Part shown: positions 8,548-60,304 of the stretch, one piece after another
Layout of the letters: each line of letters starts with the position of its first letter
Position numbering within the stretch: the first letter of the stretch is position 1
Source: Alphaproteobacteria bacterium
GTDB lineage: Bacteria; Pseudomonadota; Alphaproteobacteria; UBA6615
Assembly (NCBI GenBank): GCA_965261975.1
Contig: CBDHEC010000010.1
Coordinates: forward strand, 25,030-89,029
Length of the DNA stretch: 64,000 nucleotides
Direction of reading: 5' to 3'
Made by a program: the position numbers and the translations under genes
The notes under the pieces: generated by a model
The model's input: the letters and a program-made list of their open reading frames with translations, nothing else
The model's database searches: none
Told to the model about the DNA's origin: nothing

Positions 8548-9027
8548 TCAACCGGCCAGCCAGAGCCGGACCTCCGCCTCACGGCGGCGAACCAGCCCGG
8601 CCAGCATGCGACCCCGCGCGAATACCCAGCGGCGGAACTGGTCCGGCGCATTCCCATATTCGCCCCTGTTAATGACCCTGCGCAGGGTCGACGCCATGAG
8701 GTTGCCCGAACCGCAGTTGAAGGCGAAATCGATCAACGCGGCTTCCTGTTCCACGGAAAGCGGCACGTCGATCAAACGGTCAACCGAGCCCGCCGCCCGG
8801 GACATATCTTTCATCAGCAATCGAAATGCCGCGTCCCGGTCGGACAACGGCGCCCATCGGGCCAAGTCCGCGTTCGGTTCACGAGACAGAAGATGCCCAT
8901 AGCCAATGGTCGGGTAGCCAACCGGGTCATGATAGGGCTCGAGCGAAAGACCCTCGAAACTCTCGGCCAGAAATGCGGCCTCCGCGAGGGCGGGGTGGCT
9001 CCCGGCATCTCTGGGACCATCGGTCAT
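8548..9027 (-). CDS. Phage-type lysozyme / endolysin (GH24)
   Basis: Intact E-x8-D-x5-T triad (FEGLSLEPYHDPVGYPTIGYGH), FAFNCG, GLVRRREAE; ATGA overlap with the upstream gene. Confidence 0.93.
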   Translation of the reverse strand: MTDGPRDAGSHPALAEAAFLAESFEGLSLEPYHDPVGYPTIGYGHLLSREPNADLARWAPLSDRDAAFRLLMKDMSRAAGSVDRLIDVPLSVEQEAALIDFAFNCGSGNLMASTLRRVINRGEYGNAPDQFRRWVFARGRMLAGLVRRREAEVRLWLAG

Positions 9028-9566
9028 ACGCTGTTGTTCGCCCGCCGGCGGACCCGGTCACCGAACCAGAAGCCAAGAATGACGAATAAAATATCTTGGT
9101 CGAACGCGGTGTAAAAACCGTTCGTCGTGAACACTTCCAACGCCCGGGCCGTGAGCGAATTTGCCGTGTCCTTCGTCCCGAAAATCAGCTGGAACTGTCC
9201 CGCCTTGTGCAGCCCGTAGAGACCAAACACCCAATATGAAACGGTCGGCCGTACCGCCGAGATCAACCAGTCCAGTGCGGCAAACGACATGAATGCCAGG
9301 TTGAATGACCAGCGCCAGACATGATCCTGGTTCGCCGCCGCTTCGAGCAGTTTCACGCCATAGGATTGCCGCGATCGTCGCGCGGAACGCCGGTCAGCGA
9401 GCGCGAACTCGACCTCGAGCTGTTCGAGGCGATAGGCGTGATTCTTTTCTGCCAGCTCTGCCTGCAGGCGCAGCATCTGCGTTTCCTGCCTATGGTCGAT
9501 CCACTGTTTTCCGATACCGAACAGGTCCGGCACGAAAGGCGCGAGAAATCCCAAGATGGCGAGCAT
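9024..9566 (-). CDS. Putative holin (resembles the 3TM GTA-release holin family)
   Basis: Amphipathic N-terminus, coiled coil, VRP motif before a TM helix, C-terminal ILGFWFGDR plus basic tail; GGAGG RBS; coupled to the lysozyme. Confidence 0.7.
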   Translation of the reverse strand: MLAILGFLAPFVPDLFGIGKQWIDHRQETQMLRLQAELAEKNHAYRLEQLEVEFALADRRSARRSRQSYGVKLLEAAANQDHVWRWSFNLAFMSFAALDWLISAVRPTVSYWVFGLYGLHKAGQFQLIFGTKDTANSLTARALEVFTTNGFYTAFDQDILFVILGFWFGDRVRRRANNSV

Positions 9567-9697
9567 TTTTATCCTCCCGACGTCGTGCGCAGTCGCACGC
9601 ATCGGGCGGTGTGCACGGCGCGTTCATCGATGATGGGAACAAAAACAGGAGGAAAGTATTCGAACCGGATATGTGGGTAAAACTTGAAGTGCAGCCG
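9567..9697 (-). promoter_or_regulatory. Holin leader: shared motif CGGCTGCACTTCA, CATCATC-N7-GCGCC element and hairpin over the RBS
   Basis: Plus-strand TGAAGTGCAGCCG at 9685-9697 is identical to 60292-60304; hairpin CCCGA..CGTGCG-CAGT-CGCACG..TCGGG at 9576-9606. Confidence 0.6.
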
Positions 9698-9816
9698 GAC
9701 CGATCGAACGCCGTGCCCGCTCAATCTTTGGCCAAGTTTGACATGTCCCTCTCCGACCAAACATCGTACAACCGGCTTGCTTCCTTCAGCCCGCCTTAAC
9801 CCTTTCCCCTGGGCCC

Positions 9817-11124
9817 ATGTCCACCAGCGAAACCCCACCACCGCGCAGCGAACTTGCCGGCGCACGCGCGTTTCGGCACCGCGATTTCCGATACTTCTGG
9901 GCCACCCGCGTTGCGGGCATCCTGGCGACGGAAATGCTAGTGACCACCGTGGGCTGGCAGGTCTATCGCCTGACATCGAGCGAGCTCAATCTCGGCCTGA
10001 TCGGGTTCGCCCAATTCGCGCCCTTCGCGCTTCTGTTCCTGGTTTCCGGCGTGGCCGCCGACCGCCTGCCACGCATGCGCATCATCTTCGGTTGCGTGGC
10101 CCTGCAGACGGTGTGTGCAGCTGCCCTGCTGTGGGGGACATGGTCCGGGGCCATCGACTTTCGAATAATTCTCGCGATTCTGGTGCTGTTCGGCGTGGCG
10201 CGCGCTTTCCAGGCGCCGGCACAGATGGCGATCGTGCCGAACCTGGTGCCCAAGGACGACCTCGCCAACGCCATCGCCTGGTCGGCCACCGGCTTCCAGA
10301 TGGCGCGTATTATCGGCCCGACGATTTCGGGTCTGCTCATCGCCTTTGGGGCCGCGCGCGGTCAGGACGAGTTCTTCGTCTATGTGCTTTCGGTTTCGGT
10401 GTTCGTGCTGGCGACCATCCTCGCGGGCATGGTCCGCAAGCCGGTGCAGATCGTCAGCTCCGCGCCCATCACCATCGCCAACATCCTCGGCGGGTTCAAA
10501 TTCATCGCCTCGCGGCAGGTGATCTTCGGGGCCATCGGCCTCGACCTGTTCGCGGTGCTGTTCGGTGGCGCCATCGCCCTGTTGCCGGTCTATGCCAAGG
10601 ATATCCTCGATGTGGGGGCCGACGGGTTCGGGCTGCTCCGTTCGGCCTTCACGCTGGGATCGTTCATCGGCGCGCTGTACATGACCCAGCACCCGGTGAC
10701 CCGACGCGCCGGCGTGAAGCTATTGTCGGCCGTGGGCGTGTTCGGGCTCGGCGTCATCGTGTTCGGCGTGTCGGAGATCTTCTGGCTCTCGGCCGTGGCG
10801 CTGATCGTGATGGGCCTCGCGGATTCCGTCAGCGTGTTCGTGCGCCAGAACCTGGTGCAGATCATCACACCCGACGAGATGCGCGGCCGGGTCAGCGCCG
10901 TGACGGCCGTCTTCATCGGCGCATCGAACGAGTTGGGCGAATTTGAATCCGGCGTGACGGCCCACTGGTGGGGCACGGTACCCGCCGTCGTCGTCGGCGG
11001 CGCGGCGACGGTCACGGTCGCGGTCAGCTTCGCCTGGCTATTCCCCAAGCTACGCCAGGTGGATTCACTGGAGCCCGACGAGCTGATCCGGAAGTATCGC
11101 GACGCGCCACCGCGGCGGGGCTAA
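9817..11124 (+). CDS. MFS transporter (DHA3/EntS-like)
   Basis: About 12 TM segments, GVAADRLPR, LDLFAVLFGGA, RGRVSAV. Confidence 0.92.
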   Translation: MSTSETPPPRSELAGARAFRHRDFRYFWATRVAGILATEMLVTTVGWQVYRLTSSELNLGLIGFAQFAPFALLFLVSGVAADRLPRMRIIFGCVALQTVCAAALLWGTWSGAIDFRIILAILVLFGVARAFQAPAQMAIVPNLVPKDDLANAIAWSATGFQMARIIGPTISGLLIAFGAARGQDEFFVYVLSVSVFVLATILAGMVRKPVQIVSSAPITIANILGGFKFIASRQVIFGAIGLDLFAVLFGGAIALLPVYAKDILDVGADGFGLLRSAFTLGSFIGALYMTQHPVTRRAGVKLLSAVGVFGLGVIVFGVSEIFWLSAVALIVMGLADSVSVFVRQNLVQIITPDEMRGRVSAVTAVFIGASNELGEFESGVTAHWWGTVPAVVVGGAATVTVAVSFAWLFPKLRQVDSLEPDELIRKYRDAPPRRG

Positions 11125-11696: not shown

Positions 11697-13214
11697 ATGC
11701 TTCCCATCGACACACTCTACCGCGGCCGCCAGATCAACCCCGACGGGATCGCGCTCGAGGACGACACGACCCAGCTGACCTACCGCGAGCTGGTCGCGCG
11801 GGTCGAGGCGCTCGCCGCCGCGTTGCAGGAACGCCTGCCGACGCCACAGGCCAAGGTCGGCGCGTGCGGGTTCAACAACCTGCAGCATGTGATCGCAATC
11901 CTCGCGACCCACCTGGCGGGTCATATCTGGGTGGCCGTGAACCCGCGCTCGGGCAAGACGGAGAACACCGCCCTCATGGATCTCGTCGAGCCGGACCTGA
12001 TGATCGCCGACGACGCCGCACGCGACGCGTTCGACATTGGAGATACGCCATTCGTCGTCGCCGAGCCGGACGGCCGGTCGCATGCCAACGACACCGTCGA
12101 CGGGTTGATCGATGCGTATCGCGGCAAGCAGCCCGAACGCCATCTGCTCGACCCGAATACTGATCTGCAGGCAATCAAGTTCACCGGCGGCTCCACCGGC
12201 CTGCCCAAGGCGGTGATGCAACCCTACCGGACCGGCACCACCCTGATCGGCACCGTCCTGTCGGTGTTCGGCCTGAACGCCGACGATATCCAGGTGGCTG
12301 CGGCGCCGGTCAGCCACGCCGCATTCATCCTGATGCTGCCGATCTTCGCCACGGGCGGGCGCAACATCGTCCTGCCGGCGCCGGACCCGGATCGCATCCT
12401 GCATTCCTTTGAACAGCGCGGGGTAAGCACCATCTTCATGCCCCCGACCATGATCTACAAGACGATGGCCGACCCGGATATCGGGAAGCGGACATTTCCC
12501 AAGTTGCGCCACCTGATCTACGGCGCCGCCCCCATGCCGCCGGAAAAGGTGCGTGAGGCCCAGCAGGTTTTCCCCCACGCGCTCGAGACCCTGTACGGCC
12601 AGACCGAGGCCTCCTCGGTCTGCACCACCATGTCGGCCGCCGAGCTGGAGCAGGACGCCAACAACGGCTCGGTCGGCCGCGCCACGCCCCTGATGCGGGT
12701 CGAGATCATGGACCCCGATGGCAACATCCTGCCGCCCGGCGAAACCGGCGAGGTGGTCGTGCGCGGCGGCCTGACCATGACCGGCTACTACAAGAACCCC
12801 GAGGCGACCGAAAATGCCTTCCGCGACGGCTGGTTGCTGACCGGCGACGGCGGCCTGATCGACGAGCGTGGCTACCTGTTCCTGAAGGACCGGCTGCGCG
12901 ACGTCATCATCTCGGGCGGGTTCAACGTCTATCCAACGGATGTCGAGGGTGCGCTGGTCAAACACCCCGATGTCTATGAATGCGTCGTGTTTGGTACGGC
13001 GGACGACCATTGGGGCGAACGGGTGGAAGCGGCCGTTCAACTGCGCGACGGCGCGACGGCCAGCGCCGACGACATCATCACCCACGCCAAGGACCAGCTT
13101 GGCTCCGTGAAGGCGCCCAAGGCGGTGCATCTGGTCGAGGACCTGCCGCGCAGCGCCGTGGGCAAGGTGCTCCGCCGCGAAGTACGCGAACGTTTTTCAC
13201 CGCCGCCCAACTAA
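11697..13214 (+). CDS. Acyl-CoA synthetase / AMP-binding ligase
   Basis: FTGGSTGLPKAV P-loop, YGQTE, TGD, SGGFNVYP, PRSAVGKV. Confidence 0.92.
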   Translation: MLPIDTLYRGRQINPDGIALEDDTTQLTYRELVARVEALAAALQERLPTPQAKVGACGFNNLQHVIAILATHLAGHIWVAVNPRSGKTENTALMDLVEPDLMIADDAARDAFDIGDTPFVVAEPDGRSHANDTVDGLIDAYRGKQPERHLLDPNTDLQAIKFTGGSTGLPKAVMQPYRTGTTLIGTVLSVFGLNADDIQVAAAPVSHAAFILMLPIFATGGRNIVLPAPDPDRILHSFEQRGVSTIFMPPTMIYKTMADPDIGKRTFPKLRHLIYGAAPMPPEKVREAQQVFPHALETLYGQTEASSVCTTMSAAELEQDANNGSVGRATPLMRVEIMDPDGNILPPGETGEVVVRGGLTMTGYYKNPEATENAFRDGWLLTGDGGLIDERGYLFLKDRLRDVIISGGFNVYPTDVEGALVKHPDVYECVVFGTADDHWGERVEAAVQLRDGATASADDIITHAKDQLGSVKAPKAVHLVEDLPRSAVGKVLRREVRERFSPPPN

Positions 13215-13256
13215 ACGGGATTGGCGTCCGGCCACACTCATCGTAGAAAAGCAGCC

Positions 13257-14435
13257 ATGCAAATCACCGATATCCGCGAAACCGCGATCCCCCTTAACTC
13301 GAACCTGCGCAACGCGGTGTTCGATTTCAGCCAGATGACAACCTCCATCGTCGCCGTAATCACCGACGTCATCCGCGATGGAAAACCCGTGGTCGGCTAT
13401 GCCTTCAACTCCACCGGTCGCTATGCCTGCGGGGCGCAGATGCGGTCCCGCTTCATCCCGCGGATCATGGACTCGGACCCGGACAGCCTGATCGACGAGG
13501 CGCGCAACAATCTCGACCCCGAGGCCATCCTGGCCGCGATGATGCAGGGCGAGAAACCCGGCGGACATTCCGACCGATCCGTGGGCATCGGTACGATCGA
13601 AGTCGCCGTGTGGGACGCAATCGCGAAGATCGAGGAGAAACCTGCCTATCAATCCATCGCCGACCGCTACAATCCCGGCGGCGCGAAACCCGACATGTTC
13701 GTCTATGTGGGCGGCGGCTGGTACGCACCGGGCAAGGGCATTCCCGAGCTGCTGGACGAGATGCGCGGCTATCTCGACATGGGCTACACCCAGCTCAAGA
13801 TGAAGGTGGGCGGCGCGTCCGTCGCCGAAGACATCGAGCGGCTCGAAGCCGTGCTGAATCTGGTCGGTAATGACGGCTGGAACCTGGCCGTGGACGCCAA
13901 TTGCGGCCTGACGGACGATGAAGCCCGCGCCTACGCAAAAGCATTATCGCCCTACAAACTGCGCTGGTACGAAGAGCCGACCGACCCGCTCGACTTCGCG
14001 CTCATGGCCGAACTCGCGGATATTTATGAGCCGCCGCTGGCCACCGGTGAGAACCTGTTTTCGCAACAGGACATGCAGAATCTCGTGACCTTCGGCGGCA
14101 TGCGCCAGAATCACGACGTCCTGCAGATCGACCCGCCGCAAAGCTACGGCGTGGTCGCCGTCGCGCGCACGGTCAACATGCTGAACGCCCGGGGCTGGGC
14201 GGCCGGGAACTCGGTCATGCCCCATGGCGGCAACCAGATGTCGCTGCACATCGCCGCCGGCTTGGGCATGCTGCTGTGCGAATCCTACCCCAACACCTTC
14301 GGAATGTTCTCCGGCTTCGCGGATGATGCGGAAATTATCGACGGCTACCTCAAGCTCGACCCGGACCGGCCAGGGATCGGCTTCGAGGCCCAGGCCGACC
14401 TCTATAAGGTGATGTCGGAACTTTCCGCAGGCTAG
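13257..14435 (+). CDS. Mandelate racemase family enolase, D-tartrate dehydratase (TarD)-like
   Basis: N-terminus RNAVFDFSQMTTSIVAVITDVIRDGKPVVGYAFNSTGRY is TarD-like; KMKVGG, DAN, EEP, GEN, PHGG. Confidence 0.85.
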   Translation: MQITDIRETAIPLNSNLRNAVFDFSQMTTSIVAVITDVIRDGKPVVGYAFNSTGRYACGAQMRSRFIPRIMDSDPDSLIDEARNNLDPEAILAAMMQGEKPGGHSDRSVGIGTIEVAVWDAIAKIEEKPAYQSIADRYNPGGAKPDMFVYVGGGWYAPGKGIPELLDEMRGYLDMGYTQLKMKVGGASVAEDIERLEAVLNLVGNDGWNLAVDANCGLTDDEARAYAKALSPYKLRWYEEPTDPLDFALMAELADIYEPPLATGENLFSQQDMQNLVTFGGMRQNHDVLQIDPPQSYGVVAVARTVNMLNARGWAAGNSVMPHGGNQMSLHIAAGLGMLLCESYPNTFGMFSGFADDAEIIDGYLKLDPDRPGIGFEAQADLYKVMSELSAG

Positions 14436-14492
14436 TTCCATAACAACCACGGGGCGCCAGACCCCGATGCAAATTCCAGGGAGTGCTAAGCC

Positions 14493-15671
14493 ATGATGTT
14501 CGAATATTTCCCCGACAATTATCCATGGTCGATGGCCGCCGTTATGGCCATCAACGCCGGCGCCGTGCTGTCGGAAGTCGATGAGGCCCTGAAACCGCTC
14601 AAGCCCATGGCGGCGGCAAACGACGATGCCGCCAATGATGCCTGGCACAAACAGTGGATGATGCTCGGTGAACGCAGCGAACGCCTCGCCGACGAGGACG
14701 ACGCGGCCGGGCGCCGGATCAGCGCCAGCGCCAAGTATCTGCGCGCGGCGGTGTATTTCATGACCGCCGAGCGCATGTGCAAATCCGAAGCACCGATCCG
14801 GATCGAGACCTACAAACACATGCTCGACGTCTTCCGCAAAGGCGTGGAGCGCCAGGACGGGCCGGCCGAGTGGGTCGAGGTGCCCTATTCGCACAATGGC
14901 GAGGACACGACGCTACCCGCACTGTTCTATCCCGCCGACGCGGACGCCGTGACCGGTGACGGCCCGCCGCCCTGCATCATTCATTTCGACGGCCTGGATG
15001 TGATGAAGGAGTTTCTCTACCTGGCCGGGGTCGCACGCGCCTATGCCGCGCGCGGCATCTCGACCCTGCTGATCGACCATCCCGGCGTCGGCGAGGCGTT
15101 GCGCCTGCGCGGCCTGAAGCTGTTTCCCGAAACCGAGGTGCCGGCCGGTGCCGCCATGGATTATCTCGAAACGCGCGGCGACGTGGACTCGGACCGGGTC
15201 GGCATGGCCGGCATCAGCCTGGGCGGTTACTACGTGCCGCGCGCGGCGGGTTTCGAGCATCGCCTGAAATGCGCGATCGCCTGGGGGGCGATTAACGACT
15301 ACGGCAAGATCACCCGCGGCCGCCTGGACGGAACCGGCACCAAATTGTCTGTTTCGCACTGGGAAGAGCACATGAACTGGGTGTTCGGCACCAACTCGGC
15401 CGAAGAGATTCTCGAAGTCGTGGATCGTATGAACCTCGCCGAAGCCGTCCCCAACATCGAGTGCCCGCTGCTGGTGGTGCATGGCGAAGGAGACCGGCAG
15501 ATTCCGCTGGAAATGGCGCAAAAGACCATCCGCGAGGCCGTCAAAAGCCCACGGGCAGAGCTCAAGGTGTTCACCCCGGACGACGGCGGCATCGAGCATT
15601 GCCAGGTCGATCACGGTGCGCTGGCCGTTGAATATATGGCCGATTGGGCGGCCGACGTGCTGGGCTCGTGA
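14493..15671 (+). CDS. Alpha/beta hydrolase, 2,6-dihydroxypseudooxynicotine hydrolase-like
   Basis: DGLDVMKE, GISLGG nucleophile elbow, HGEGD, EHCQ. Confidence 0.85.
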   Translation: MMFEYFPDNYPWSMAAVMAINAGAVLSEVDEALKPLKPMAAANDDAANDAWHKQWMMLGERSERLADEDDAAGRRISASAKYLRAAVYFMTAERMCKSEAPIRIETYKHMLDVFRKGVERQDGPAEWVEVPYSHNGEDTTLPALFYPADADAVTGDGPPPCIIHFDGLDVMKEFLYLAGVARAYAARGISTLLIDHPGVGEALRLRGLKLFPETEVPAGAAMDYLETRGDVDSDRVGMAGISLGGYYVPRAAGFEHRLKCAIAWGAINDYGKITRGRLDGTGTKLSVSHWEEHMNWVFGTNSAEEILEVVDRMNLAEAVPNIECPLLVVHGEGDRQIPLEMAQKTIREAVKSPRAELKVFTPDDGGIEHCQVDHGALAVEYMADWAADVLGS

Positions 15672-15690
15672 AGGCGATGATTCAGAGCAA

Positions 15691-15719
15691 TTGACTCAAT
15701 CAAACGCTTGATTGAATAT
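15691..15719 (+). promoter_or_regulatory. Sigma70-like promoter with a perfect inverted-repeat operator (probable TetR autoregulatory site)
   Basis: TTGACT (15691) -17 bp- GAATAT; TCAATCAA-ACGC-TTGATTGA at 15696-15715. Confidence 0.7.
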
Positions 15720-15759
15720 TCTTCCCGATCGTCCGGTCAACGGACGGCAGGGAGGAACA

Positions 15760-16464
15760 GTGACGGCACTTCCAATCGAAGATGCTGGTATTGCCCCGGG
15801 GCCAAGGGGCGAAGCCACGCGCCAACGGATACTCGACGCAGCCGAACGGTTGTTCTCCGAGCACGGTATCAATGGTGTGTCCCTGCGCACGATCACGGCA
15901 GAGGCCGGCGCCAACTCAGCCGCCGCCAATTATCATTTTGGATCCAAGAAAGGCCTGCTCGACGCGGTGTTCGAGCGACATGCGACCGGCATGGCCGAGG
16001 AACGCGCGAAGCTGCTTGCGGATTGTCGCGATGCGCCGGGCCGCCCGCCGCTCATGGAGCAGATCATATCGGCGTTTCTCGAGCCGGGCATGCGCGGCGA
16101 ACATGGTGGCGCGACCTTCGCGCGCCTGCGCGGACGCATGTTGGCGGAGAGCAGCGATCAGACCCGTGAGCTCTATGCGCTTCATTTGAATGATTCGACC
16201 GGGCGGTTCCTGGATGCGATCGGCGCGGCGCTGCCTGCTTTGCCGGCGCATGACCTGCACTGGCGCTTCCACATGATGCTCGGCGCTATGGTCTACACCC
16301 TTGCAAATCCCGGCCGCATTCAAATTCTGACCGAGGGTGCGTGTGACCCCTCGGACCCCGATCAAGCATTGGACTATCTGGTCCCGATGCTCGCCCAAAT
16401 ATTCTCCGGCCCACCAATCGCAGATGCGGTGAATCCGGTGGAAATGCTGCGAACTGTCAACTAG
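15760..16464 (+). CDS. TetR/AcrR family regulator (PsrA-like)
   Basis: TRQRILDAAERLFSEHG...NYHFGSK HTH; LHWRFHMMLGA; GTG start after GGAGG. Confidence 0.92.
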   Translation: MTALPIEDAGIAPGPRGEATRQRILDAAERLFSEHGINGVSLRTITAEAGANSAAANYHFGSKKGLLDAVFERHATGMAEERAKLLADCRDAPGRPPLMEQIISAFLEPGMRGEHGGATFARLRGRMLAESSDQTRELYALHLNDSTGRFLDAIGAALPALPAHDLHWRFHMMLGAMVYTLANPGRIQILTEGACDPSDPDQALDYLVPMLAQIFSGPPIADAVNPVEMLRTVN

Positions 16465-16496
16465 CCCAAACGATACGTCAGAAGGAAAACACGACG

Positions 16497-17480
16497 ATGG
16501 CAAACCCGAACAGCGATATGCGCGTCACCCACGATCTGCTCGAGGAATACGCACAGAAGTACAAGAACTGGGGAAAATGGGGAGATGATGACGAAATCGG
16601 AACGCTGAATCATACTTCCGAAGCAGACGTCGTCGGCGCCGCCCAACTCGTCAAGAAGGGCAAGGTCATGTCCATGGGCCTTAACTACGATCAGTACGGC
16701 CCACAGGGTGCCAAAACACCCTACCCCCAGATGGGCCGGTTCAACCCGATACACATGATGTTGCGCACGGGCACTGACGCCTATTCCGGCGTGCTCGATC
16801 ATCGCGGCATTCGCGGCGCGGACGACATGGTGATGATGCCGCTCCAGTGCGGCACCCAGTGGGACGGCCTCGGCCATGTCTTCTACAAGGACTTCATGTG
16901 GAACGGCTATGACTGCCGCGAGGTCACGACGGCGGGTGCCCAGAAAGCCGGCATCGAGAAAACCAAGTCCCGAATGACCGGCCGCGGCGTATTCCTCGAC
17001 ATGGCACGGGTCAAGGGCGTCGAATGCCTGGAGGACGGCTACCCGATCACTTGCGACGACCTGGACGAAGCCTGCGAAAAGCAAGGCGTCGAGGTGCGCG
17101 AAGGCGACTTCGTGGTTCTGCGTACGGGAATGATGGAACGTTGCCTGGACGAGGGCAGCTGGGACGGATACTGCGGTGGCGATGCGCCAGGCCTCGCGTT
17201 CGAGACCATCGACTGGATCTCGAAGAAAGGAATCGCCGCCTACGCGTCGGACACGTGGGGCAACGAAGTACGCCCGTGTGAAACCGACGAGAACATCAAT
17301 CAGCCCTGGCACTGGATCGTCATTCCGATCATGGGCCTAACCATGGGCGAGATTTTCTATCTCAAGGACATCGCCGACGACTGCGAAGAGGACAAGGTCT
17401 ACGAGTTCATGTTTGTTGCCCCCGCCCTGCCGATTACCGGTGCGGTGGGTTCGCCGGTCAATCCGCTGGCAATTAAATAA
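16497..17480 (+). CDS. Cyclase family (kynurenine formamidase-like) metal-dependent hydrolase
   Basis: NWGKWGDDDEIGTLN, GTQWDGLGH, VLRTG, GAVGSPVNPLAIK. Confidence 0.9.
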   Translation: MANPNSDMRVTHDLLEEYAQKYKNWGKWGDDDEIGTLNHTSEADVVGAAQLVKKGKVMSMGLNYDQYGPQGAKTPYPQMGRFNPIHMMLRTGTDAYSGVLDHRGIRGADDMVMMPLQCGTQWDGLGHVFYKDFMWNGYDCREVTTAGAQKAGIEKTKSRMTGRGVFLDMARVKGVECLEDGYPITCDDLDEACEKQGVEVREGDFVVLRTGMMERCLDEGSWDGYCGGDAPGLAFETIDWISKKGIAAYASDTWGNEVRPCETDENINQPWHWIVIPIMGLTMGEIFYLKDIADDCEEDKVYEFMFVAPALPITGAVGSPVNPLAIK

Positions 17481-17659
17481 CGGGACGCAAGAGTAAATTT
17501 ATCTGTCCCAAGTCCACCGTACCGGTAGGATGGTCTGCAACAACGGACCGGAAATGCAGGTCACGGATGTTTGTGAGGGTTGGCCTTGACCCGTTCCAGG
17601 GCCAACCGCAGAGTTAATCCAAGGACGGGGGAGCGCTCAACGTCTCTAGGGAGGATCAA

Positions 17660-18853: not shown

Positions 18854-18863
18854 CGGAGGTTTC

Positions 18864-18891
18864 GTCCGGCCGGCGCCCGCGCCGGCCGGAC
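18864..18891 (+). other. Strong stem-loop after dctP (probably mRNA-stabilising or a partial terminator)
   Basis: GTCCGGCCGGCG-CCCG-CGCCGGCCGGAC, perfect 12-bp stem, no U-tail. Confidence 0.6.
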
Positions 18892-18912
18892 ACCTTCTGA
18901 AAGGCTCCTACG

Positions 18913-19434: not shown

Positions 19435-19437
19435 ACG

Positions 19438-20853: not shown

Positions 20854-20881
20854 TCGGGTCGGGTTTAGGCGACTTCAGAAA

Positions 20882-21484: not shown

Positions 21485-21663
21485 AAGCTTCCCCGGTATT
21501 TGAACTCTGGTATCTGGTGAACAGATGCGCGTAAAAATATCCAACTACCGCTAAACTAGTGGTTGTTTGGTTAACAAAAGCTTTCGGAACACAGATTGTG
21601 CCGCGCGCACCCAGCCCGGCCCAAAACGCCGTATCTCCGAAGCACCGATGGAAGGAAACAGAC

Positions 21664-22017: not shown

Positions 22018-22024
22018 CCTTCCG

Positions 22025-23395: not shown

Positions 23396-23410
23396 GTCGA
23401 GGTCCGGTCG

Positions 23411-33077: not shown

Positions 33078-33078
33078 A

Positions 33079-42940: not shown

Positions 42941-43094
42941 GACGAGGAGGCTTATACGCGCGTGCCCGGCCTCGCGCCAATTCTTGCTGCAAAAAGAATG
43001 CCCGGCGCGCCTTGCCAGAGCGATGCGACAGGCCAATTATCTATCTACCGACACAGCATACAAACGGGCTGCCGCCAGCCGTGAAAGACGCACA

Positions 43095-53681: not shown

Positions 53682-55106
53682 CTAAAGATAAGGCGAGAAC
53701 AATCTTGCCACGCCATCGCGCAGCCGCACAGCCAAGGAACGCGCCTGGATATCTTCGACTGTCAGGCGGCGGGCCTCGCCTCGTTCCGCCGCGAAGGCGT
53801 TCGACAATTCGTCCACGAAAGCCGCGTTGCAGCATTCGACATTCAGCTCGAAATTCAGCCGCAGGCTCCGGGGATCCCAGTTCGACGACCCGATGAGGGC
53901 CCACTCCCGATCCACCATGAACAGCTTGGCGTGATTGAAGGGCCGGGTTCCCAGCCAGATATTGCAACCGTCATGCAGGAGTTCATCGAGGCGCGCGCGG
54001 ACCGCCCAATCGACAAACCGGAGATTGCTGCGGGCGGGAATCAGGATGTCGATTTTCACACCCTTGATCGATGCGATGCGCAATGCCGAGACGAGGATCT
54101 CATCGGGCAAAAAATACGGTGTCTGGATAAGAATCCGCTCTCGCGCCTCGAGGATCGCGGCATGGAGAATCCATCTCGTCCGATCGATCGGCTCGTGCGG
54201 GCCGGTCGGGATCGCGCGGGCGACGACGTCGCCCCGCGAGGCGAGCGCGGGAAACCAGCGCTCACCTTCCAGGGCCTCGCCGGTCGTGAAGGTCCAGTCA
54301 TCGGCAAATGCGTCCGACAACTGGCCGACCACGGGACCGGTTATTCGAAAATGAAGGTCACGCACCGCACGCCGGGGGGTCTCGTCCAGCCGGTTGTTCT
54401 GGGAGATGTTGATGCCCCCGGTGAAGCCGGTCTCGCCATCCACCACCAGAATTTTCCGGTGGCTGCGCAGGTTGAGGTAGGGCATGCGCCAGGGCCAGAA
54501 CGAATGCATGTATCGCGCGAAAGGTATTTCGGCGCGACGCAGGGCCGCGATGATCGAGGGAAACGAATACATCTGGCCGACCCCGTCGACCAGGACCCGC
54601 ACCTCGACACCCCGCGCCCGGGCACGGTCAAGCGCCGCGACGAAGTCCAGCCCGGCGGTATCACGCTTGAAAATATAGGTCGACAGCATGACCGACCGGG
54701 TCGCGGCGTCGATCGCCCCGATCATCGCGGGATAGACTTCGTCCCCGTTGCGCAGCAGCTCGACCCGGTTGCCGTCGACTGCCCGGTTCGGCGCAAGATT
54801 GTTGATCAGCCGGTCAATGGCCGTTTCCGCGCCCGCCCGGCCGCCATTCGTATCGGTGTCACCTGCGCCGACGGTGCTGCTCGACGGCGGCCGGGTCCGC
54901 ATGGCGCGGCGGCGGATGCGGTTGATCCCGAACAGCAGATAGGCGACCGAGCCGATACCGGGTGACAGCAGAATGAGGCCGACCCAGGCGATCGCCGCGT
55001 TCTCGTTGCGCTTGTAGAGGATCACGGTGGCGGCCAGCACGATCGGAATGACACCGACAACCAGGGTCGTCGCAAACGGCCAGTAGAACGCCAACAGTTC
55101 CAGCAT
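53682..55106 (-). CDS. cls: Cardiolipin synthase
   Basis: Two HKD motifs (HRKILVVD, HAKLFMVD) and two N-terminal TMs. Confidence 0.93.
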   Translation of the reverse strand: MLELLAFYWPFATTLVVGVIPIVLAATVILYKRNENAAIAWVGLILLSPGIGSVAYLLFGINRIRRRAMRTRPPSSSTVGAGDTDTNGGRAGAETAIDRLINNLAPNRAVDGNRVELLRNGDEVYPAMIGAIDAATRSVMLSTYIFKRDTAGLDFVAALDRARARGVEVRVLVDGVGQMYSFPSIIAALRRAEIPFARYMHSFWPWRMPYLNLRSHRKILVVDGETGFTGGINISQNNRLDETPRRAVRDLHFRITGPVVGQLSDAFADDWTFTTGEALEGERWFPALASRGDVVARAIPTGPHEPIDRTRWILHAAILEARERILIQTPYFLPDEILVSALRIASIKGVKIDILIPARSNLRFVDWAVRARLDELLHDGCNIWLGTRPFNHAKLFMVDREWALIGSSNWDPRSLRLNFELNVECCNAAFVDELSNAFAAERGEARRLTVEDIQARSLAVRLRDGVARLFSPYL

Positions 55107-55209
55107 CGGTCCTTAAATTCCCGGAGCCCGGAGCTCACCTGTTTCGCGGGATGTGCAGACTGACGGTGCCGACCTGATGTTTCAAGTCCGCCCGGAAACC
55201 TCCGGGCAT

Positions 55210-55671
55210 TCAATCCGGCGGCCCGCCCTCAATCGGCGTGCGGTCTCCGTTAGCGGCGGGGCGGCGAGACGGGCTGACCACGGCGAAGATCGCATCCGCC
55301 GTCTGGCCGACCTGCTGCACGCGCGCGCGCAAATCACCCAGCTCAAGCTGCACGACATGAATCTCTTCCCGCAGCGCGTCCACCCGGTTCCACAACCGGT
55401 CTCTTTGTTCCAGCTGGAAACGGGCCGAACCGTCGATCTCCTGCGCCAGCTCGCTGGCCTGCTGCGCCACGTCGCCCCGCACCAGCCGGACCTCGTCAAA
55501 CATGAACCACCACCCGCTCACCGCGATGGCCGCGAGCGTCGCCAGGACCTTGGCAAAAACCCGCACCGTCACCGGCTGGTCCACCAGGCGCAGCGCCCCG
55601 CCGGATGCCCCGTCCGATGATCCATCCGATGCCCCGCCGCCACCCGCATTTCGTCGCTGTCCATTGTCCAT
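55210..55671 (-). CDS. Hypothetical single-TM coiled-coil protein, possibly phage-derived
   Basis: GGAGG RBS, Gly-rich N-terminus, TM (VFAKVLATLAAIAVSGWWFMF), long coiled coil. Confidence 0.65.
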   Translation of the reverse strand: MDNGQRRNAGGGGASDGSSDGASGGALRLVDQPVTVRVFAKVLATLAAIAVSGWWFMFDEVRLVRGDVAQQASELAQEIDGSARFQLEQRDRLWNRVDALREEIHVVQLELGDLRARVQQVGQTADAIFAVVSPSRRPAANGDRTPIEGGPPD

Positions 55672-55684
55672 ATGCGCGTCCTCC

Positions 55685-55717
55685 ACAAACGAAAACGGCC
55701 CCGCCGAGCGGGGCCGT
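55685..55717 (-). terminator. Intrinsic terminator directly before the RBS of the 55210-55671 gene
   Basis: Sense strand ACGGCCCCGC-TCG-GCGGGGCCGT then TTTCGTTTGT then GGAGG. Confidence 0.75.
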
Positions 55718-55738
55718 CCGTTCTCGATACTCGATCGC

Positions 55739-56437
55739 TTAATCGATGGCGAAGACGACCGAGACCTGCGCCCGCACCGTCAGCTCACCGGCCGCCACGG
55801 GCACACCTTCCGCGGCCGCCCGCGCCAGGAACTGGCGCGGTGCCGGCCCCACGCCGCCAGCGTTGATCGTCAGGATATCGCCTAGTTCGATACCTGCCGC
55901 ATCGGCGATGTTGCGCGCATTCGCCACCGCATCGCGCACGGCATTGGCCATGGCCTTCTTCTCCAGCCCGTCGCGCTCCGCGACATCGAACCTGATCCCA
56001 TGCACCTGGTTCGCGCCGGCATCGACGACCCCATCGAGGACCACCCCGAAGCCCGCGAGGTCACGCACGGTGATGTGCACATTGTTGCGCACCGTGTAGC
56101 CGATGATCTCGGGCTGCACGGGCTCGTTGTTTCGCCGCGGCCTGAATTGCGGCGAGACCGATATGTTCGTCGACTGCATGTCTCGCGCGGCCACGCCCGA
56201 GGCGCGCAGGAAATCGAACACGCCGGCCGTCTTCGTATTGTTGGCCGTCAGCGCATCGCGTGCGGTCGGCGCCGTCGTCGTCACCCCAACCGTGATGGAA
56301 ACCAGGTCCGGCGTCGCGGCGACTGTGCCGCTGCCGGAAATCGACAGGGTTCGCGGCAACGACGAATCTTCATCGGCCAGGGCTGGGCCTGTCCCGAGAA
56401 TGGACAACAGCAGCACGAACGAAAGCAACAAACGCAT
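55739..56437 (-). CDS. SIMPL (DUF541) domain protein
   Basis: Signal peptide, SGSGTVAATPD, GANQVHGIRF, VAAGELTV. Confidence 0.92.
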   Translation of the reverse strand: MRLLLSFVLLLSILGTGPALADEDSSLPRTLSISGSGTVAATPDLVSITVGVTTTAPTARDALTANNTKTAGVFDFLRASGVAARDMQSTNISVSPQFRPRRNNEPVQPEIIGYTVRNNVHITVRDLAGFGVVLDGVVDAGANQVHGIRFDVAERDGLEKKAMANAVRDAVANARNIADAAGIELGDILTINAGGVGPAPRQFLARAAAEGVPVAAGELTVRAQVSVVFAID

Positions 56438-56530
56438 GATCAAATCTCCTGACGGCCTGATTGAAAGGCGAGAGTGCCGATCAATTTTGGCGAAGCTGTG
56501 GCCGATCATGGGGATATTCGGCGACGATTG

Positions 56531-57169
56531 CTATTCGCCGAACCCCTCGATGTCATCCCCATAGGCGGCGTGGGCGAGATCGGATCGCCGGGCGACCGCC
56601 TGGCGATGTTCGGAATGGGCACGATCGAGCAACGCTGCGCGGAATTCGGGGTCGGACTCCAGGGCCGACAATTGCGCGCGCGCCTCCGCCGCCGAATGCC
56701 CGATGCGCGCTGCTTTGCCGCCGATGAACGCATCTTCACCCATCGCGCCGCCCAGCTTTGCAAATGCGCGCACCATATCCGGGTGATCGCCCAGATACTG
56801 GCCGTCGGCTAGACGCAGCTGGCGCACATCGTCCACACGGTCGCCGAAGGCCGCCACAAACGCCCGGTTGGCCAGGTCGATTCGGGCATCGAATTCCCCG
56901 CCCCATTCCCGGCGCAACCCGGTCTCTGCCGCATCAAGTGCACGTTCCCGCGCGGCGTTCGTATCCTGCCAGGCCGCCCCCTGCAGCTCGACATAACCTT
57001 CGAGCAGGGATCGTGCCTGCTCGTCCGTCAGGTCCGACGCGTGCATCCGGTCGAGCATCTGTGCCTGGAGCTCCTCGTCCCACGGCATTCCGTCCGGCCG
57101 TGCCAGCCCGTCCACATCATATCCGTCCGGTGTCTCCTGTTCTGGGCGAAGGAAATTGAACTGAGGCAT
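56531..57169 (-). CDS. Phage capsid scaffolding/assembly protein (podovirus-type)
   Basis: P..PDGY, LTDEQA, LRREWG..FD, LGDHP..VRAFAKLG..MGED, C-terminal H.EH..AV motifs recalled from BPP-1/epsilon15-like scaffolds. Confidence 0.7.
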   Translation of the reverse strand: MPQFNFLRPEQETPDGYDVDGLARPDGMPWDEELQAQMLDRMHASDLTDEQARSLLEGYVELQGAAWQDTNAARERALDAAETGLRREWGGEFDARIDLANRAFVAAFGDRVDDVRQLRLADGQYLGDHPDMVRAFAKLGGAMGEDAFIGGKAARIGHSAAEARAQLSALESDPEFRAALLDRAHSEHRQAVARRSDLAHAAYGDDIEGFGE

Positions 57170-57203
57170 TGCCCGGATGCGGCGTCGGTGCTTGGATCGG
57201 GGC

Positions 57204-57671
57204 ATGTCGTTCTGGTCGAAAACCCTGGCGCTGCTGCAGCGCATTTTCTATCCGCTCACGCACACGCCCGATCACGCACTCCAGGCCCTGCGCAACGGCA
57301 CCTTCGCGGCGTGGATCATGGTCGCGATGCACTTCCTGCTCGGCGCGGTGATTCTGATCCAGCTCTCGGGCGACCCGAGCGTGACCGGCGGCGACCGGCT
57401 CATCCCGGCCACCATCCAGCTCTTCTTCGCGCTGATTTATGTCGGCCTCGCCACGGCCAACTGGAAGGGATCCCGCACGGCGGCGATCACGATCCTGGTC
57501 CTCGTGCTTTTCGACATGTTCGTCGTCACCTCGCGCGTCCACGAGGTCGACCTGCAGGCCACCCTCCAGCGCATCCAGGCCACCGTCCTGCTGGTGCCGC
57601 TCCTGCTGTCCATCGGCGGCGTGCGGGGCGTCTTTGCCTATGCCCGCTTCGTGAAGGCCGGCGCGGTCTGA
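57204..57671 (+). CDS. Hypothetical 4-TM membrane protein
   Basis: Four hydrophobic helices; host-like codon pattern. Confidence 0.7.
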   Translation: MSFWSKTLALLQRIFYPLTHTPDHALQALRNGTFAAWIMVAMHFLLGAVILIQLSGDPSVTGGDRLIPATIQLFFALIYVGLATANWKGSRTAAITILVLVLFDMFVVTSRVHEVDLQATLQRIQATVLLVPLLLSIGGVRGVFAYARFVKAGAV

Positions 57672-57756
57672 TGCGCACACCACATCCGGGATTCAGTTTC
57701 GCAGCGGTCACGCCCCGGCCGCCACAACCCACATCACCTCTTTCGGAGACCCCATC

Positions 57757-58182
57757 ATGAATGACCACCTCATCCCCCACGCCAAGCTCACCAACGCCGG
57801 CGCGCGCAAGATCATTCGTGGCGCCGCGGCCAAGGCCGAGGAAATCGGCGTGCCCGAATGCATCGCCGTGGTCGATGACGGGGGGCACCTGCTCGCCTTC
57901 ATGCGCATGGACGGCGCCTTTGCGCTTTCCAACGACACCGCCATCGCCAAGGCCATGACGTCGGCCATCTACCGCTGCCCGACCGGGGAGATCCCCGAGG
58001 GGCCGGACATCCGCCTCGCCGTCGCCACCCAGGGCAAGCGCATCAACCTGCCCGGCGGCCTGCCGATCATCATCGACGGCAAATGCGTCGGCGGCGTCGG
58101 GGTCGGCTCGGGCACCGGCGAGGAAGACCGCATCTGCGCCAACGCCGGGCTGGCCGGCTTCGAGGGCGCGGAGACGTTCTAG
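57757..58182 (+). CDS. GlcG/HbpS family heme-binding protein
   Basis: IAVVDDGGHL, AIAKA, GGLPI, GGVGVG, ED. Confidence 0.9.
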   Translation: MNDHLIPHAKLTNAGARKIIRGAAAKAEEIGVPECIAVVDDGGHLLAFMRMDGAFALSNDTAIAKAMTSAIYRCPTGEIPEGPDIRLAVATQGKRINLPGGLPIIIDGKCVGGVGVGSGTGEEDRICANAGLAGFEGAETF

Positions 58183-58212
58183 GGACGTCGGCGCGGTCGG
58201 CCTTCACTCCCT

Positions 58213-59712
58213 TCAGGTAAACGGGTCCCAGTCCATGCCCACCGTTGCCGGGTAATCCTGCGCCGGCCCCGGCGCGCGGTAGCCCACCGCGAACATCCGG
58301 AAGGCGTCGGCCCCGTGGGAGGCCGCATCGTGGTGGGGCCGGTCGCGCCACACACCGCGCGTGTCGTCCCAGGCCCGTCGATAGCCGTCCAGGTGCCGCA
58401 GCCCCGCATCGCAACGCGCGGCGTCAAACCAGCACCCCGCCAGCGCGTTGCGCACCGCCTGGATGTCCGTGCCCAGGTCCTTCGCGCGCGGCACGGTCAC
58501 GATCGGGCGCAGACCCAGGTCTTCCAGCATGCGCCGGCGCGACAGCCCGCTGCCCAGCTCGCGCACCTCCACGTCATGGGGCAGGTAATGGCAACCATAG
58601 GTGTAGGGCCGGTCGCGCAAGGCCTGCACGTAATGCGCCAGCCCCTCCCCTTCGTTTTCGTAATAGTCGATGAAGCGATCCTCGCGCCCCGCCCGCTGAT
58701 GAAACCAGATCGCGTTCACATCGTTGATGCCCAGGTCCCAGAAGGTGCTGACCGGTAGCGCCGGGTCATGGGGCAGGCTCAAAATCCGCCCCTCGGCGCG
58801 CACCCGCGCCATCTCGCGGGCGTAGTACGCCCCGGCCACCGAGGCCGCGAACGCCTCGTCCGGGGTGGCGGGAAACTCGCGGCACATGGCGTCCCCCTGC
58901 TGGGCGGCCTTGCGGACATACCAGGCCTTCTGCGTCGGGCTGAGGCGGATGCCTGCGCTGTCCAGCTCGGCGAAATACCGCGCCAGCTTCTCGGGGACCG
59001 TCACCCCCTCGGGGGCCAGCACATAGCCCGGGTGGCGCCACCAGGGGAAGAAGTGAAACCGGAAATCCAGCGCCGTCAGCGGCGCGCCCTCGGCGGCCCG
59101 GTTGCGGGCATTCGTACAGAACTCGAAGAAGTCGCCGTCCCGGCCCTCGGCCGTCGATTCGATGAAAATATGCTGGCCCGGATGCACGGTGTTCAGCGCC
59201 CCGGCGCGGATCTCCGCCGCCTTGTCCGGGTAGCGCGCGCAGATCTTCCCGTGTTCGGAGACATGCAGATACTGGAACGTGCCCGAGCGCAGGCTGGTCC
59301 CGACCCGCAGGCTCGACCCGTTGGCGAACGCCAGCTCGCGCGCCGAATCCCCGACCGCCGGGATGGCCCGGCGCAGCGCCCGGGGCAGCTGCTGATAGGG
59401 GTAGCGCACCTTCTCCCTGAAGATGGCCTCGGCGTCGTGGAGCGTGTGGGCCAGGGTCCCGGCGGTGATGTTCGAGTTGAACAGGCACGCATCGAGGATC
59501 AGCAGCTGGATGAAGGTGGTCATGCCCAGCTGGCGCGCCTTCAGCACCAGGTTGAGGGCATGCAGATCATCGAACAAGGCCGCCTGCGCCCAGTTCATGC
59601 GGAACTTCACCCGCCGGCCGTGGGCGTCCTTGATCCAGTAGAGATTGTTGAGCCGCCAGCGGCGGTCGGAGAAACATGCCCGTGCCGTTTCGCGATCGGG
59701 GTCTCCACTCAA
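58213..59712 (-). CDS. terL: Phage terminase large subunit
   Basis: Walker A LKARQLGMTT, Walker B YLHVSE, IESTAEG, nuclease WDLG and SHGADAFR; TTGA overlap with terS. Confidence 0.92.
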   Translation of the reverse strand: MSGDPDRETARACFSDRRWRLNNLYWIKDAHGRRVKFRMNWAQAALFDDLHALNLVLKARQLGMTTFIQLLILDACLFNSNITAGTLAHTLHDAEAIFREKVRYPYQQLPRALRRAIPAVGDSARELAFANGSSLRVGTSLRSGTFQYLHVSEHGKICARYPDKAAEIRAGALNTVHPGQHIFIESTAEGRDGDFFEFCTNARNRAAEGAPLTALDFRFHFFPWWRHPGYVLAPEGVTVPEKLARYFAELDSAGIRLSPTQKAWYVRKAAQQGDAMCREFPATPDEAFAASVAGAYYAREMARVRAEGRILSLPHDPALPVSTFWDLGINDVNAIWFHQRAGREDRFIDYYENEGEGLAHYVQALRDRPYTYGCHYLPHDVEVRELGSGLSRRRMLEDLGLRPIVTVPRAKDLGTDIQAVRNALAGCWFDAARCDAGLRHLDGYRRAWDDTRGVWRDRPHHDAASHGADAFRMFAVGYRAPGPAQDYPATVGMDWDPFT

Positions 59713-60167
59713 TGCGACCGTTCCCTAACATGCGGGTTATCGCCGCCATCGATCTCGCGCAGAAGACTGCGCAGATCATCGCCGGCCTCTCTTCCGCTGC
59801 CGTCCCCATACAGGCGCGGGCGGCGCGCGCGCAGCAACAGCATCAGCATCCGGTCGGAGTATTTCCGGATCGCACCGACTTTCTGGCCCTGAAAATAGAC
59901 CGGTTCCTCATGCCCGGTGACCGCCCGGCGGATCGCCTCGTCCTCGACCGCGTCGATACCGATCTCCAGCGCCTCGTCCCAGGCCTCGGCGAACAGCGGG
60001 TCGGATTTCCGCAGCCGATACCACTTACCCCGATACACGCCCGTCGCCTGCGACGCGGCGGTGACGCTGGCCGTCTCGGCCAACATCTCGAGAAACGCCT
60101 CGCGGCGGGCCTTGTTGAGCCGGGTCGAACCATGGGGCCGGCGGCGGGGTTTCGCGTCCTGCGCCAT
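59709..60167 (-). CDS. terS: Phage terminase small subunit (HTH)
   Basis: FLEMLAETASVTAAS..GV..WY..R..DP.FAEAWDEAL; EAIRRA; YSDRMLMLLL; GGAGG RBS; coupled to terL. Confidence 0.85.
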   Translation of the reverse strand: MAQDAKPRRRPHGSTRLNKARREAFLEMLAETASVTAASQATGVYRGKWYRLRKSDPLFAEAWDEALEIGIDAVEDEAIRRAVTGHEEPVYFQGQKVGAIRKYSDRMLMLLLRARRPRLYGDGSGREAGDDLRSLLREIDGGDNPHVRERSH

Positions 60168-60199
60168 ACCGCCGCCTCCGTTCGCTCGCAATGTTTGCC

Positions 60200-60231
60200 A
60201 AAGCAAAACCCGCCGGAGGGACCCCGGCGGG
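60200..60231 (-). terminator. Intrinsic terminator inside the terS 5' leader
   Basis: Sense strand CCCGCCGG-GGTCCCT-CCGGCGGG-TTTTGCTTT, ending about 32 nt before the terS ATG. Confidence 0.75.
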
Positions 60232-60304
60232 CGCAACTTTGTGATCATGAATTTCGTGCACGCTATACCCGCGCAAGGATGAATGCAAAACTGAAGTGCA
60301 GCCG
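60232..60304 (-). promoter_or_regulatory. terS promoter region with the motif shared with the holin leader
   Basis: Sense CGGCTGCACTTCAGTTTT...GGTATAGC...CATGATCACAAAGTTGCG. Confidence 0.6.

Follow-up and report, generated by a model that had tools for sequence, protein, structure and literature searches.

The stretch of DNA described here (the window) comprises 64,000 nucleotides of contig CBDHEC010000010.1 (positions 25,030 to 89,029, forward strand) from assembly GCA_965261975.1, an uncultured alphaproteobacterium of the lineage UBA6615. It carries two small loci of phage origin, one with the terminase genes terS and terL and a piece of a scaffold-position gene (p295), the other with an endolysin gene and a gene for a membrane protein. 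With a probability of about three in four, these are the surviving ends of an old, vertically inherited head-tail cluster and a separate lysis cassette, and in this genome the system is a relic. Close relatives hold the whole cluster at the same site; here about 11.3 kb of it is missing, leaving terS and terL behind their leader together with a truncated p295. An original prediction, made from the letters of the window, had proposed a dispersed, domesticated podovirus-derived particle system and possible gene transfer agent (GTA). Domestication was upheld at the level of the clade, and a working system in this genome was not.

The genome of the window (G000) is available as an assembly of 3.03 Mb in 59 contigs (94.6% complete). 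Genes were called by codon-position GC, protein families were assigned with Pfam and PHROGs, and 11 other genomes of the genus were compared. All phage-derived genes of the window lie on the minus strand, in two small loci about 48 kb apart with ordinary chromosome around them. The term dispersed overstates this layout. The intervening chromosome is ordinary, with about 44 kb of genes, among them those for a TRAP transporter, an amidase, polysaccharide synthesis, glycosyltransferases, PPDK, GlyQ/GlyS and a polyprenyl synthase. In a Pfam scan, the 40 open reading frames (ORFs) between 9.8 and 53.7 kb, and IlvD in addition, were host-type or matchless, and none belonged to an integrase, repressor, replication or tail family, as had been noted beforehand. 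Replication, integration and lysogeny families were likewise missing among the ORFs scanned in the window and in the corresponding locus of G011.

The full cluster was found at the same site in three genomes of the genus (G010, G011 and G002) and on the complete chromosome of a member of a second genus (G052). It starts with the leader, terS, terL, two to three host genes on the opposite strand, small tail-fibre-like genes and a variable stretch. Then follow portal, capsid, a protein of 162 amino acids (aa), tail tubular A and B and two internal virion proteins, and finally a Bbp19-like protein, the scaffold-position protein p295, a SIMPL protein and a transmembrane (TM) protein. In G011, the portal matched PF12236 at 1.4e-133 and the capsid PF19821 at 8e-70, and tail tubular A and B were assigned to phrog_394 and phrog_376. 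One small gene upstream of the portal gave weak tail-fibre matches, and the variable stretch holds host-type genes. Full-length p295 has 291–295 aa and is encoded 13–15 kb from terL in the three genomes of the genus. The flanks match those of the window: a histidine kinase and a GDSL lipase border the cluster at one end, SIMPL, the TM protein and cls at the opposite end. The cluster of G052 has the same order with all ORFs open, and the head, packaging and tail set of all four genomes is complete, with the tail fibre and ejection components unproven. A portal of at least 79% identity was detected, within the family sample, in three of 11 genomes in each of the two genera; it is cut at residue 172 in G050 and split over two contigs in G043. 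Contigs of the IMG/VR database with a capsid of at least 90% identity showed the same bacterial gene arrangement.

The nearest phages of the portal are pelagiphages of the HTVC010P type, at about 41% identity. The likeness to HTVC010P extends to the capsid (45%), tail tubular A (36%) and B (36–48%), one internal virion protein, the Bbp19-like gp06 and gp07 (31%), and the gene order is largely kept. The cluster is colinear with the phage except for the Bbp19-like gene (gp06) and p295 (gp07), a pair that was relocated to the 3' end. In the phage, the pair occupies the scaffold position between portal and capsid, gp07 being the homologue of full-length p295, and in one IMG/VR contig (L133, capsid 86%) the p295 homologue stands immediately before the capsid gene. 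TerL is only 29% identical to that of HTVC010P and has its best matches in siphoviruses and a P22-like phage (about 50%). The cluster is thus chimeric, because a head-tail part of the HTVC010P type is combined with a TerL of another lineage; the former would derive from an HTVC010P-type podovirus and the terminase from elsewhere. Further differences from the phage are the embedded host genes and, in the stretches read, the lack of replication, integration and larger ejection or tail genes, and the window retains no more than terS, terL and a portion of the homologue of gp07. The podoviral ancestry that had been proposed for the window was borne out by the portal, capsid and tail tubular A and B of the T7/HTVC010P type that the sister genomes hold at this locus.

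A strongly conserved non-coding element of about 110–190 nt abuts the capsid gene upstream in G010 (L044:17060-17246) and recurs in G011, G002, G052, G043, L127, L132 and L133, the last with the ancestral gene order. It has several GC-rich helices, one of them with an insert of variable length. The copy of G010 had no match in Rfam, and the element may be a structured RNA of the 5' untranslated region.

In G000, the place of the virion genes is contiguous. When the region around the junction (57130–57132) was compared by blastn with five sister loci, homology to G010 stopped at about position 57131 and resumed 11.3 kb further on in G010, at about codon 92 of p295. The sequence lacking here corresponds to positions 12175–23505 of the 40 kb stretch of G010 and runs from the first small gene into p295, up to about its codon 92. 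Positions 55000–60400 are covered without a difference by a Logan contig of 13.9 kb from run X1; X1 is probably the source data of G000, so that this contig excludes only an error specific to the assembler. A second run, X2, yielded just short pieces of relatives, 90–95% alike, which were left out.

Nor were the missing genes found elsewhere in the assembly. All ORFs from 40 kb of G010, G011 and G002 were searched against it by tblastn, and no portal, capsid, tube or internal virion protein was recovered, whereas all flanking genes came back at 73–98% identity. A search with 38 proteins from Hafnia phage Pocitis76 and Sphingopyxis phage VSN-002 matched terL and nothing else in the genome. The profiles PF04860, PF12236 and PF19821 also had no match in the assembly, the control for PF04860 being positive in 4 of 14 genomes including Caulobacter. 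A structural module of the T7/HTVC010P type (PF12236, PF19821, tail tubular A and B) was accordingly not found in G000, and its head, packaging and tail set consists of terS and terL only. The absence of portal and capsid from the genome had been named beforehand as a finding that would refute a working system, and this is what the searches of the assembly gave. From gene content, we infer that the genes of the window cannot build particles after the central deletion, because portal and capsid are missing.

The truncation of p295 marks the other side of the junction. The remnant is a 237 aa ORF (56531–57244, minus strand) with matches to phrog_3742 (1.6e-28) and phrog_458, annotated as protease (5.2e-17). 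Its residues 37–237 correspond to residues ~92–295 of the 291–295 aa protein of the sister genomes, and the homologous part lies at 56531–57136; residues 1–36 are encoded by antisense or intergenic sequence of the neighbouring gene. The remnant is 77–82% identical to residues ~87–295 of the proteins of G010, G011 and G002. Judged from this alignment, the ORF is a truncated fusion from which the 5' end of p295 is gone. It had been described as a scaffold-like gene, which was correct for its ancestry, as a homologue of HTVC010P gp07; in this genome it is a remnant.

Deletions of this kind occurred repeatedly. In a host tree built from seven flanking proteins (2,983 columns), G000 groups with G008 and then with G010, while G007 lies outside and G009 far away. 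The junctions within p295 are at residue ~92 in G000, ~78 in G007 and ~63 in G009, and x123 is retained in G007 only. The deletions of G000, G007 and G009 are regarded as independent, because the intact G010 is nearer to G000 and because the junctions differ. All three ends fall in the first third of p295 and spare the part matched by phrog_458. The cut homologues lie at L057:13113-13765 (G007) and L051:1395-2069 (G009), and the remnant of G007 is frameshifted. The left junction of G008 is a different one, and in this genome terS, p295, SIMPL and the greater part of terL are gone as well. A single deletion shared by G000 and G008 was considered and is unsupported, since the left junctions are about 13 nt apart.

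On the other side of the deletion, both terminase genes are intact, as had been claimed. The large subunit gene terL (58213–59712, minus strand) encodes 499 aa free of stops and matched phrog_2472 (8.4e-85), phrog_26724 (1.5e-68) and phrog_2 (2.6e-24), whereas Pfam and a PDB sequence search gave no match. The protein is about 50% identical, at 93–98% coverage, to TerL of Hafnia phage Pocitis76 and Sphingopyxis phage VSN-002. It is a full-length family member, and at the columns invariant in 11 other aligned TerL sequences it has zero unique changes; the original prediction had named ATPase and nuclease motifs in it. The small subunit gene terS (59709–60167, minus strand) encodes 152 aa and matched phrog_4044 at 1.6e-33; it scored 20.6 bits against PF20901 (Sf6_terminase), under the cut-off of 27 bits, and a PDB sequence search with it yielded matches at chance level only. 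The start of terS was corrected from 60248 to 60167, where it is preceded by a GGAGG site; the ATG at 60248 sits within a conserved non-coding leader. A look-up of RNA data sets for the terS-terL stretch gave none.

TerL was detected in 10 of the 11 other genomes of the genus. Five of them (G007, G004, G011, G010 and G002) have a full-length protein at 87–91% identity, G009 has a C-terminal piece at a contig edge with at least 109 residues kept, G003 gave a weak match of 48 residues, and in G001, G006 and G008 only scraps are left, interrupted by stops or broken frames. Members of the second genus have this locus too, with a TerL at 70–78% identity. The small subunit comes in two allelic types of about 50% identity, next to a TerL that is 87–91% identical throughout. 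Type 1 is present in G000, G011 and G004 (about 75% identity of G000 to the other two), and type 2 in G010, G002, G007 and the second genus (about 50% identity of G000 to the first three). This suggests allele replacement or a fast evolution confined to terS.

The leader of terS (60168–60322, minus strand) sits in the spacer between the GDSL gene and terS and was aligned from 13 copies of 10 genomes, with 43 invariant columns. It consists of a CTGCAC box, TTTTGCA, 17 nt, TAGCGT, a near-invariant box and a GC-rich hairpin with a T-run, and the putative promoter reads TTGCAT, 17 nt, TAGCGT. The near-invariant box is GTGCACGAAATTCATGATCAC at 60241–60261, and in the alignment it reads GTGCACGAAATTCA-GATCA, stretching from the -10 region into the initially transcribed sequence. 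The hairpin and T-run (60208–60232) appear terminator-like in a terminator scan, with 11 pairs, and are paired in 90.8% of alignment cells as compared with 37–58% when the partners were slid. They are conserved and not covarying (one pair changes on both sides; 45 of 500 shuffles reached the observed score), and the structure is thus taken from conservation and the terminator scan, because covariation is lacking. An Rfam search with the leader gave nothing above chance. The leader is fully conserved in G000. In five genomes searched (G010, G011, G002, G007 and G052), the box was found only at terS, and matches elsewhere with two mismatches were the same unrelated sequence in two genomes; in G000 itself, matches at up to five mismatches were scattered coding sequence. 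A tandem pair of leaders, about 230–550 nt apart, is present in three genomes of the second genus (L058:9193-9585, L059:8924-9566 and L060:8820-9525), and the first copy of L060 is followed by a small ORF whose start resembles a signal peptide.

Such a leader would be a late promoter of the phage type, from which a short transcript ends at the terminator unless an antiterminator acts. By analogy with lambda Q, GafZ of CcGTA and BrrG of BaGTA, control by antitermination is the most likely mode of action. The arrangement resembles lambda pR'-tR' in having a promoter and, within about 50 nt, an intrinsic terminator ahead of the terminase genes, as well as a near-invariant box. It differs in its weak promoter hexamers, which a scan did not call, and in that no Q-like gene was found; an antiterminator gene was not identified. 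A promoter followed by a terminator ahead of the packaging genes is also described for CcGTA and BaGTA in two reports (PMC11150451; 10.1101/2024.11.20.624540), of which the former shows antitermination control for CcGTA and the latter proposes it as general in alphaproteobacterial GTAs.

Selection and inheritance were assessed from ratios of non-synonymous to synonymous substitution (dN/dS), calculated pairwise by NG86, with terminal branches taken from star-tree or least-squares fits to pairwise dN and dS. Values were 0.09–0.13 for TerL, 0.11–0.12 for the portal, 0.08–0.11 for the capsid, 0.09–0.16 for tail tube A, 0.11–0.14 for tail tube B and 0.15–0.28 for the internal virion proteins. Synonymous divergence of the cluster genes (dS 0.34–1.0) is similar to that of the flanking host genes (0.35–0.96), and between the genera the capsid is 91% identical as against 55–72% for the host flanks. 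A dN/dS of about 0.1 together with a host-like dS indicates an old vertical domestication, and the data fit a cluster that was long inherited vertically under purifying selection rather than integrated repeatedly or left to neutral decay, terS with its two types being the exception. Vertical inheritance under purifying selection, for which the original prediction had proposed a check, was supported across two genera. Losses of the cluster recur in many lineages. On the terminal branch of G000 in the star tree of the genus, dN/dS of TerL is 0.10 (0.07–0.15), with 0.11–0.15 in intact lineages, and that of the p295 remnant is 0.13 (0.07–0.24), with 0.13 in intact lineages; point estimates on the TerL tree agree with these values. 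Relaxed selection is visible in neither terL nor the p295 remnant of G000, so that the deletion there is probably recent.

The same lack of relaxation could alternatively mean that a function was kept after the deletion, and this belongs to several points that weigh against the interpretation as a relic. All three deletion lineages retain the C-terminal domain of p295 together with SIMPL and the TM gene, and the shared region of the deletion ends hints at either a recombination hot spot or selection on this domain. The relatives compared are metagenome-assembled genomes, fitting branches to NG86 values by star tree or least squares is a crude method where third-position GC is about 0.8–0.9, TerL by itself resolves the genus tree poorly, and some rows with dN >1.7 were left out of the dN/dS data as out-of-register artefacts (SIMPL pairs with G007 or G002, and GlcG in G009). 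The controls for PF12236 and PF19821 were empty as well, which leaves both searches unvalidated and the absence of virion genes resting mainly on tblastn, and as the 59 contigs of the assembly amount to 94.6% completeness, the unassembled DNA may contain a portal or capsid. Finally, a strict sigma-70 scan called no promoter in the leader.

It was therefore considered whether terS and terL, perhaps with the C-terminal part of p295, SIMPL and the TM gene, are selected for another role, such as packaging host DNA into the capsids of HTVC010P-like phages that infect the cell, or interfering with these phages. In favour of this are the low terminal dN/dS values, not only in G000 (TerL 0.10, remnant 0.13) but also for TerL of G007 (0.08) and the remnant of G009 (0.20), the survival of terL in two or more deletion lineages that arose independently (G000 and G007; in G009, at least 109 C-terminal residues), the sparing of the C-terminal two-thirds of p295 by all three deletion ends and the fully conserved terS leader. 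A truncated scaffold that is as constrained as terL is, however, explained more simply by recent deletions, beyond the resolution of the test. In addition, the remnant is frameshifted in G007, the closest relative G008 as well as G001 and G006 lost or broke terL, and titles and abstracts in the literature offered no precedent. Such a role appears improbable, and a relic with recently orphaned ends remains the preferred interpretation.

The second phage-derived locus, the lysis cassette, lies at the other end of the window. The endolysin gene (8548–9027, minus strand) encodes 159 aa with matches to PF00959 (4.1e-36) and phrog_7 (1.3e-41), so that the GH24 assignment was confirmed; the match spans positions 2–125 of the 125 of the profile and is thus full-length. 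The protein has no TM segment and shows the spacing E-8-D-5-T, which we take to be the GH24 catalytic triad. The gene upstream (9024–9566, minus strand) encodes a 180 aa membrane protein that matched phrog_6637 (no known function) at 6.4e-15, with a TM-like segment at residues 11–31 of the long ORF, and only eight relatives, none of them named, were found among 5.8 billion proteins. The description as a holin-endolysin pair holds for the coupling of the two ORFs, the stop of the one overlapping the start of the lysozyme; the 180 aa protein is a putative holin on account of a single N-terminal TM segment, the phrog_6637 match and this overlap. With a leader of its own (9567–9816, minus strand), which contains a putative promoter, and a terminator-like site downstream of the endolysin gene (8509–8526), the pair forms a 1.2 kb insert between IlvD and MFS. 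Among eight genomes of the genus examined at this site, the insert was present in three (G000, G011 and G008), and IlvD and MFS are directly adjacent in the others (G010, G002, G007, G009 and G001).

A motif shared by the leaders of the two modules had been noticed before and is real. The exact 13-mer CGGCTGCACTTCA occurs at 9685–9697, immediately upstream of the putative -35/-10 pair of the lysis leader, and at 60292–60304, where it takes in the CTGCAC box and the first bases of the -35-like element. When the two leader regions were shuffled, 13 or more bases in common were obtained in 3 of 3000 trials, and a genome-wide check for leader-like sites, which the original prediction had called for, found only these two exact copies in the 3.03 Mb. 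The lysis leader of G008 has the 13-mer with one mismatch, and in that of G011 only the -35/-10-like parts align. The two promoters may plausibly be linked, by an activator site that both have or by shared descent, and the endolysin gene and its TM partner would be a self-contained insert whose promoter has the same upstream box as that of terS. A co-regulated regulon was not supported. The near-invariant leader box is unique to terS in the five genomes searched, and the lysis pair is not co-distributed with the cluster: it is present in one of the three genomes of the genus with an intact cluster and also in two without virion genes, G010 and G002 having the cluster without the pair and G008 the pair without the cluster. 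In another genus of the family, G014 has 17 separate GH24 lysozyme matches, of which 11 cover most of the query at 44–51% identity, an unusual copy number.

It is very unlikely that G000 runs a working, dispersed GTA of podoviral origin, with head packaging and lysis co-regulated and the virion genes elsewhere in the genome. The intact terS and terL with their low dN/dS, the intact lysis pair, the 13-mer common to the two leaders and the approximately 5% of the genome that is unassembled would all be compatible with it. Searches with three families and with sister proteins nevertheless yielded no portal, capsid, tube or internal virion gene, the place of the virion genes is contiguous and the deletion mapped, the scaffold homologue is truncated and the lysis pair is missing in two of the three genomes of the genus with an intact cluster. 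Equally unlikely is an ordinary cryptic prophage in neutral decay, domesticated at no level, for which patchy and repeated losses (portal in 3 of the 11 other genomes of genus g1), the terL scraps with stops in G001, G006 and G008 and the truncated portal of G050 could be cited, but which is at odds with a dN/dS of about 0.1 for all cluster genes over a dS of 0.3–1.0, ORFs open in four genomes of two genera, a capsid far better conserved between the genera (91%) than the host flanks (55–72%) and a rearranged order with embedded host genes that is identical in both.

Some of the genes around the remnant may belong to the phage-derived unit as well. The SIMPL/DUF541 protein (55739–56509, minus strand) matched PF04402 at 6.3e-50 and phrog_36144 at 1.5e-33. 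Next to it, a gene for a 158 aa protein (55210–55686, minus strand) with one TM segment at residues 38–61 and a likely coiled coil, the TM/coiled-coil gene of the original prediction, had no match in Pfam or PHROGs. Both genes are present in seven of seven loci that keep p295 or its remnant and missing in four of four loci without it (G008, G050/L058, G001 and G006), the loci being from relatives and not independent samples. SIMPL and the TM protein may thus be part of the phage-derived unit and not of the host. The gene for cardiolipin synthase (cls) lies beside them on the minus strand at the high end of the window.

Two host genes on the plus strand separate terL from the 237 aa ORF. One encodes a 164 aa membrane protein (57177–57671) with four to five hydrophobic segments and is also found in the cluster-less G008, G001 and G006. 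The other encodes a GlcG/HbpS-like protein (57757–58182; PF03928 at 7.7e-33) and was retained where genomes lost the phage-derived genes. A second HbpS-like/GlcG paralogue lies 32 kb from the copy beside terL, at 25610–26053 (PF03928, 1.8e-27). Between the two loci lies a stretch for polysaccharide synthesis (about 29200–35900 and 40100–43000), composed of genes for glycosyltransferases, epimerases and C-methyltransferases, in which several ORFs have a third-position GC below the rest of the window. This stretch may be a variable surface-polysaccharide island.

GTAs are recognised by a chromosomal set of head, packaging and tail genes, the lack of replication, integration and lysogeny genes, and particles that transfer random host DNA. 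Known so far from its genes alone, the cluster of the relatives is in its gene content what the genomic part of this definition describes. Like RcGTA, CcGTA and BaGTA, it is a set of phage-derived structural genes that lacks replication and integration functions and has been passed on vertically under purifying selection, and lysis genes located apart from the structural cluster are known from RcGTA. To our knowledge, the well-studied alphaproteobacterial GTAs all descend from siphovirus-like phages of the HK97 type. The relatives, in contrast, have a portal and tail tubular proteins of the T7 type and not a HK97-type head with protease and a siphovirus tail, evidence for their cluster is genomic, no regulator similar to GafA, GafYZ or BrrG was identified, and in G000 the virion genes are deleted. 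In keeping with the distinction from RcGTA made in the original prediction, the portal of RcGTA-like elements (Rhodogtaviriformidae, PF04860) was not found in G000 and that of the relatives belongs to PF12236. The cluster is chimeric, a feature that is shared by BaGTA (10.1101/2024.11.20.624540). Titles and abstracts in the literature contained no description of a podovirus- or T7-like GTA.

A further comparison concerns defective prophages. Bobay and colleagues reportedly described in 2014 that defective, domesticated cryptic prophages are under purifying selection, and the cluster shares with these its vertical inheritance, partial deletion and the low dN/dS of the survivors. It differs in being a coherent set for head, tail and packaging with the same rearranged order in two genera. 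Tentatively, the clusters of G010, G011, G002 and G052 could be a working GTA of podovirus build, chimeric in pairing a head and tail of the HTVC010P type with a lambdoid or P22-like terminase, that is switched on by antitermination at the terS leader, in which case G000 would be a natural knock-out whose orphaned terS-terL and p295C-SIMPL modules are perhaps still used; this is possible but less likely than not. Such a candidate GTA of the sister species would be unrelated to RcGTA, BaGTA and VSH-1.

For G000 itself, the packaging genes are orphaned, and intact terminase genes are no evidence of particle production. The repeated natural deletions, including that of the window, provide a ready comparison of genomes with and without the system, and the conserved promoter-terminator leader is a handle for finding its regulator. 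A podovirus-type set of head, tail and terminase genes has been kept at one chromosomal site in two genera of uncultured marine alphaproteobacteria. If this set is indeed a GTA, it would represent an independent domestication with a different particle design.

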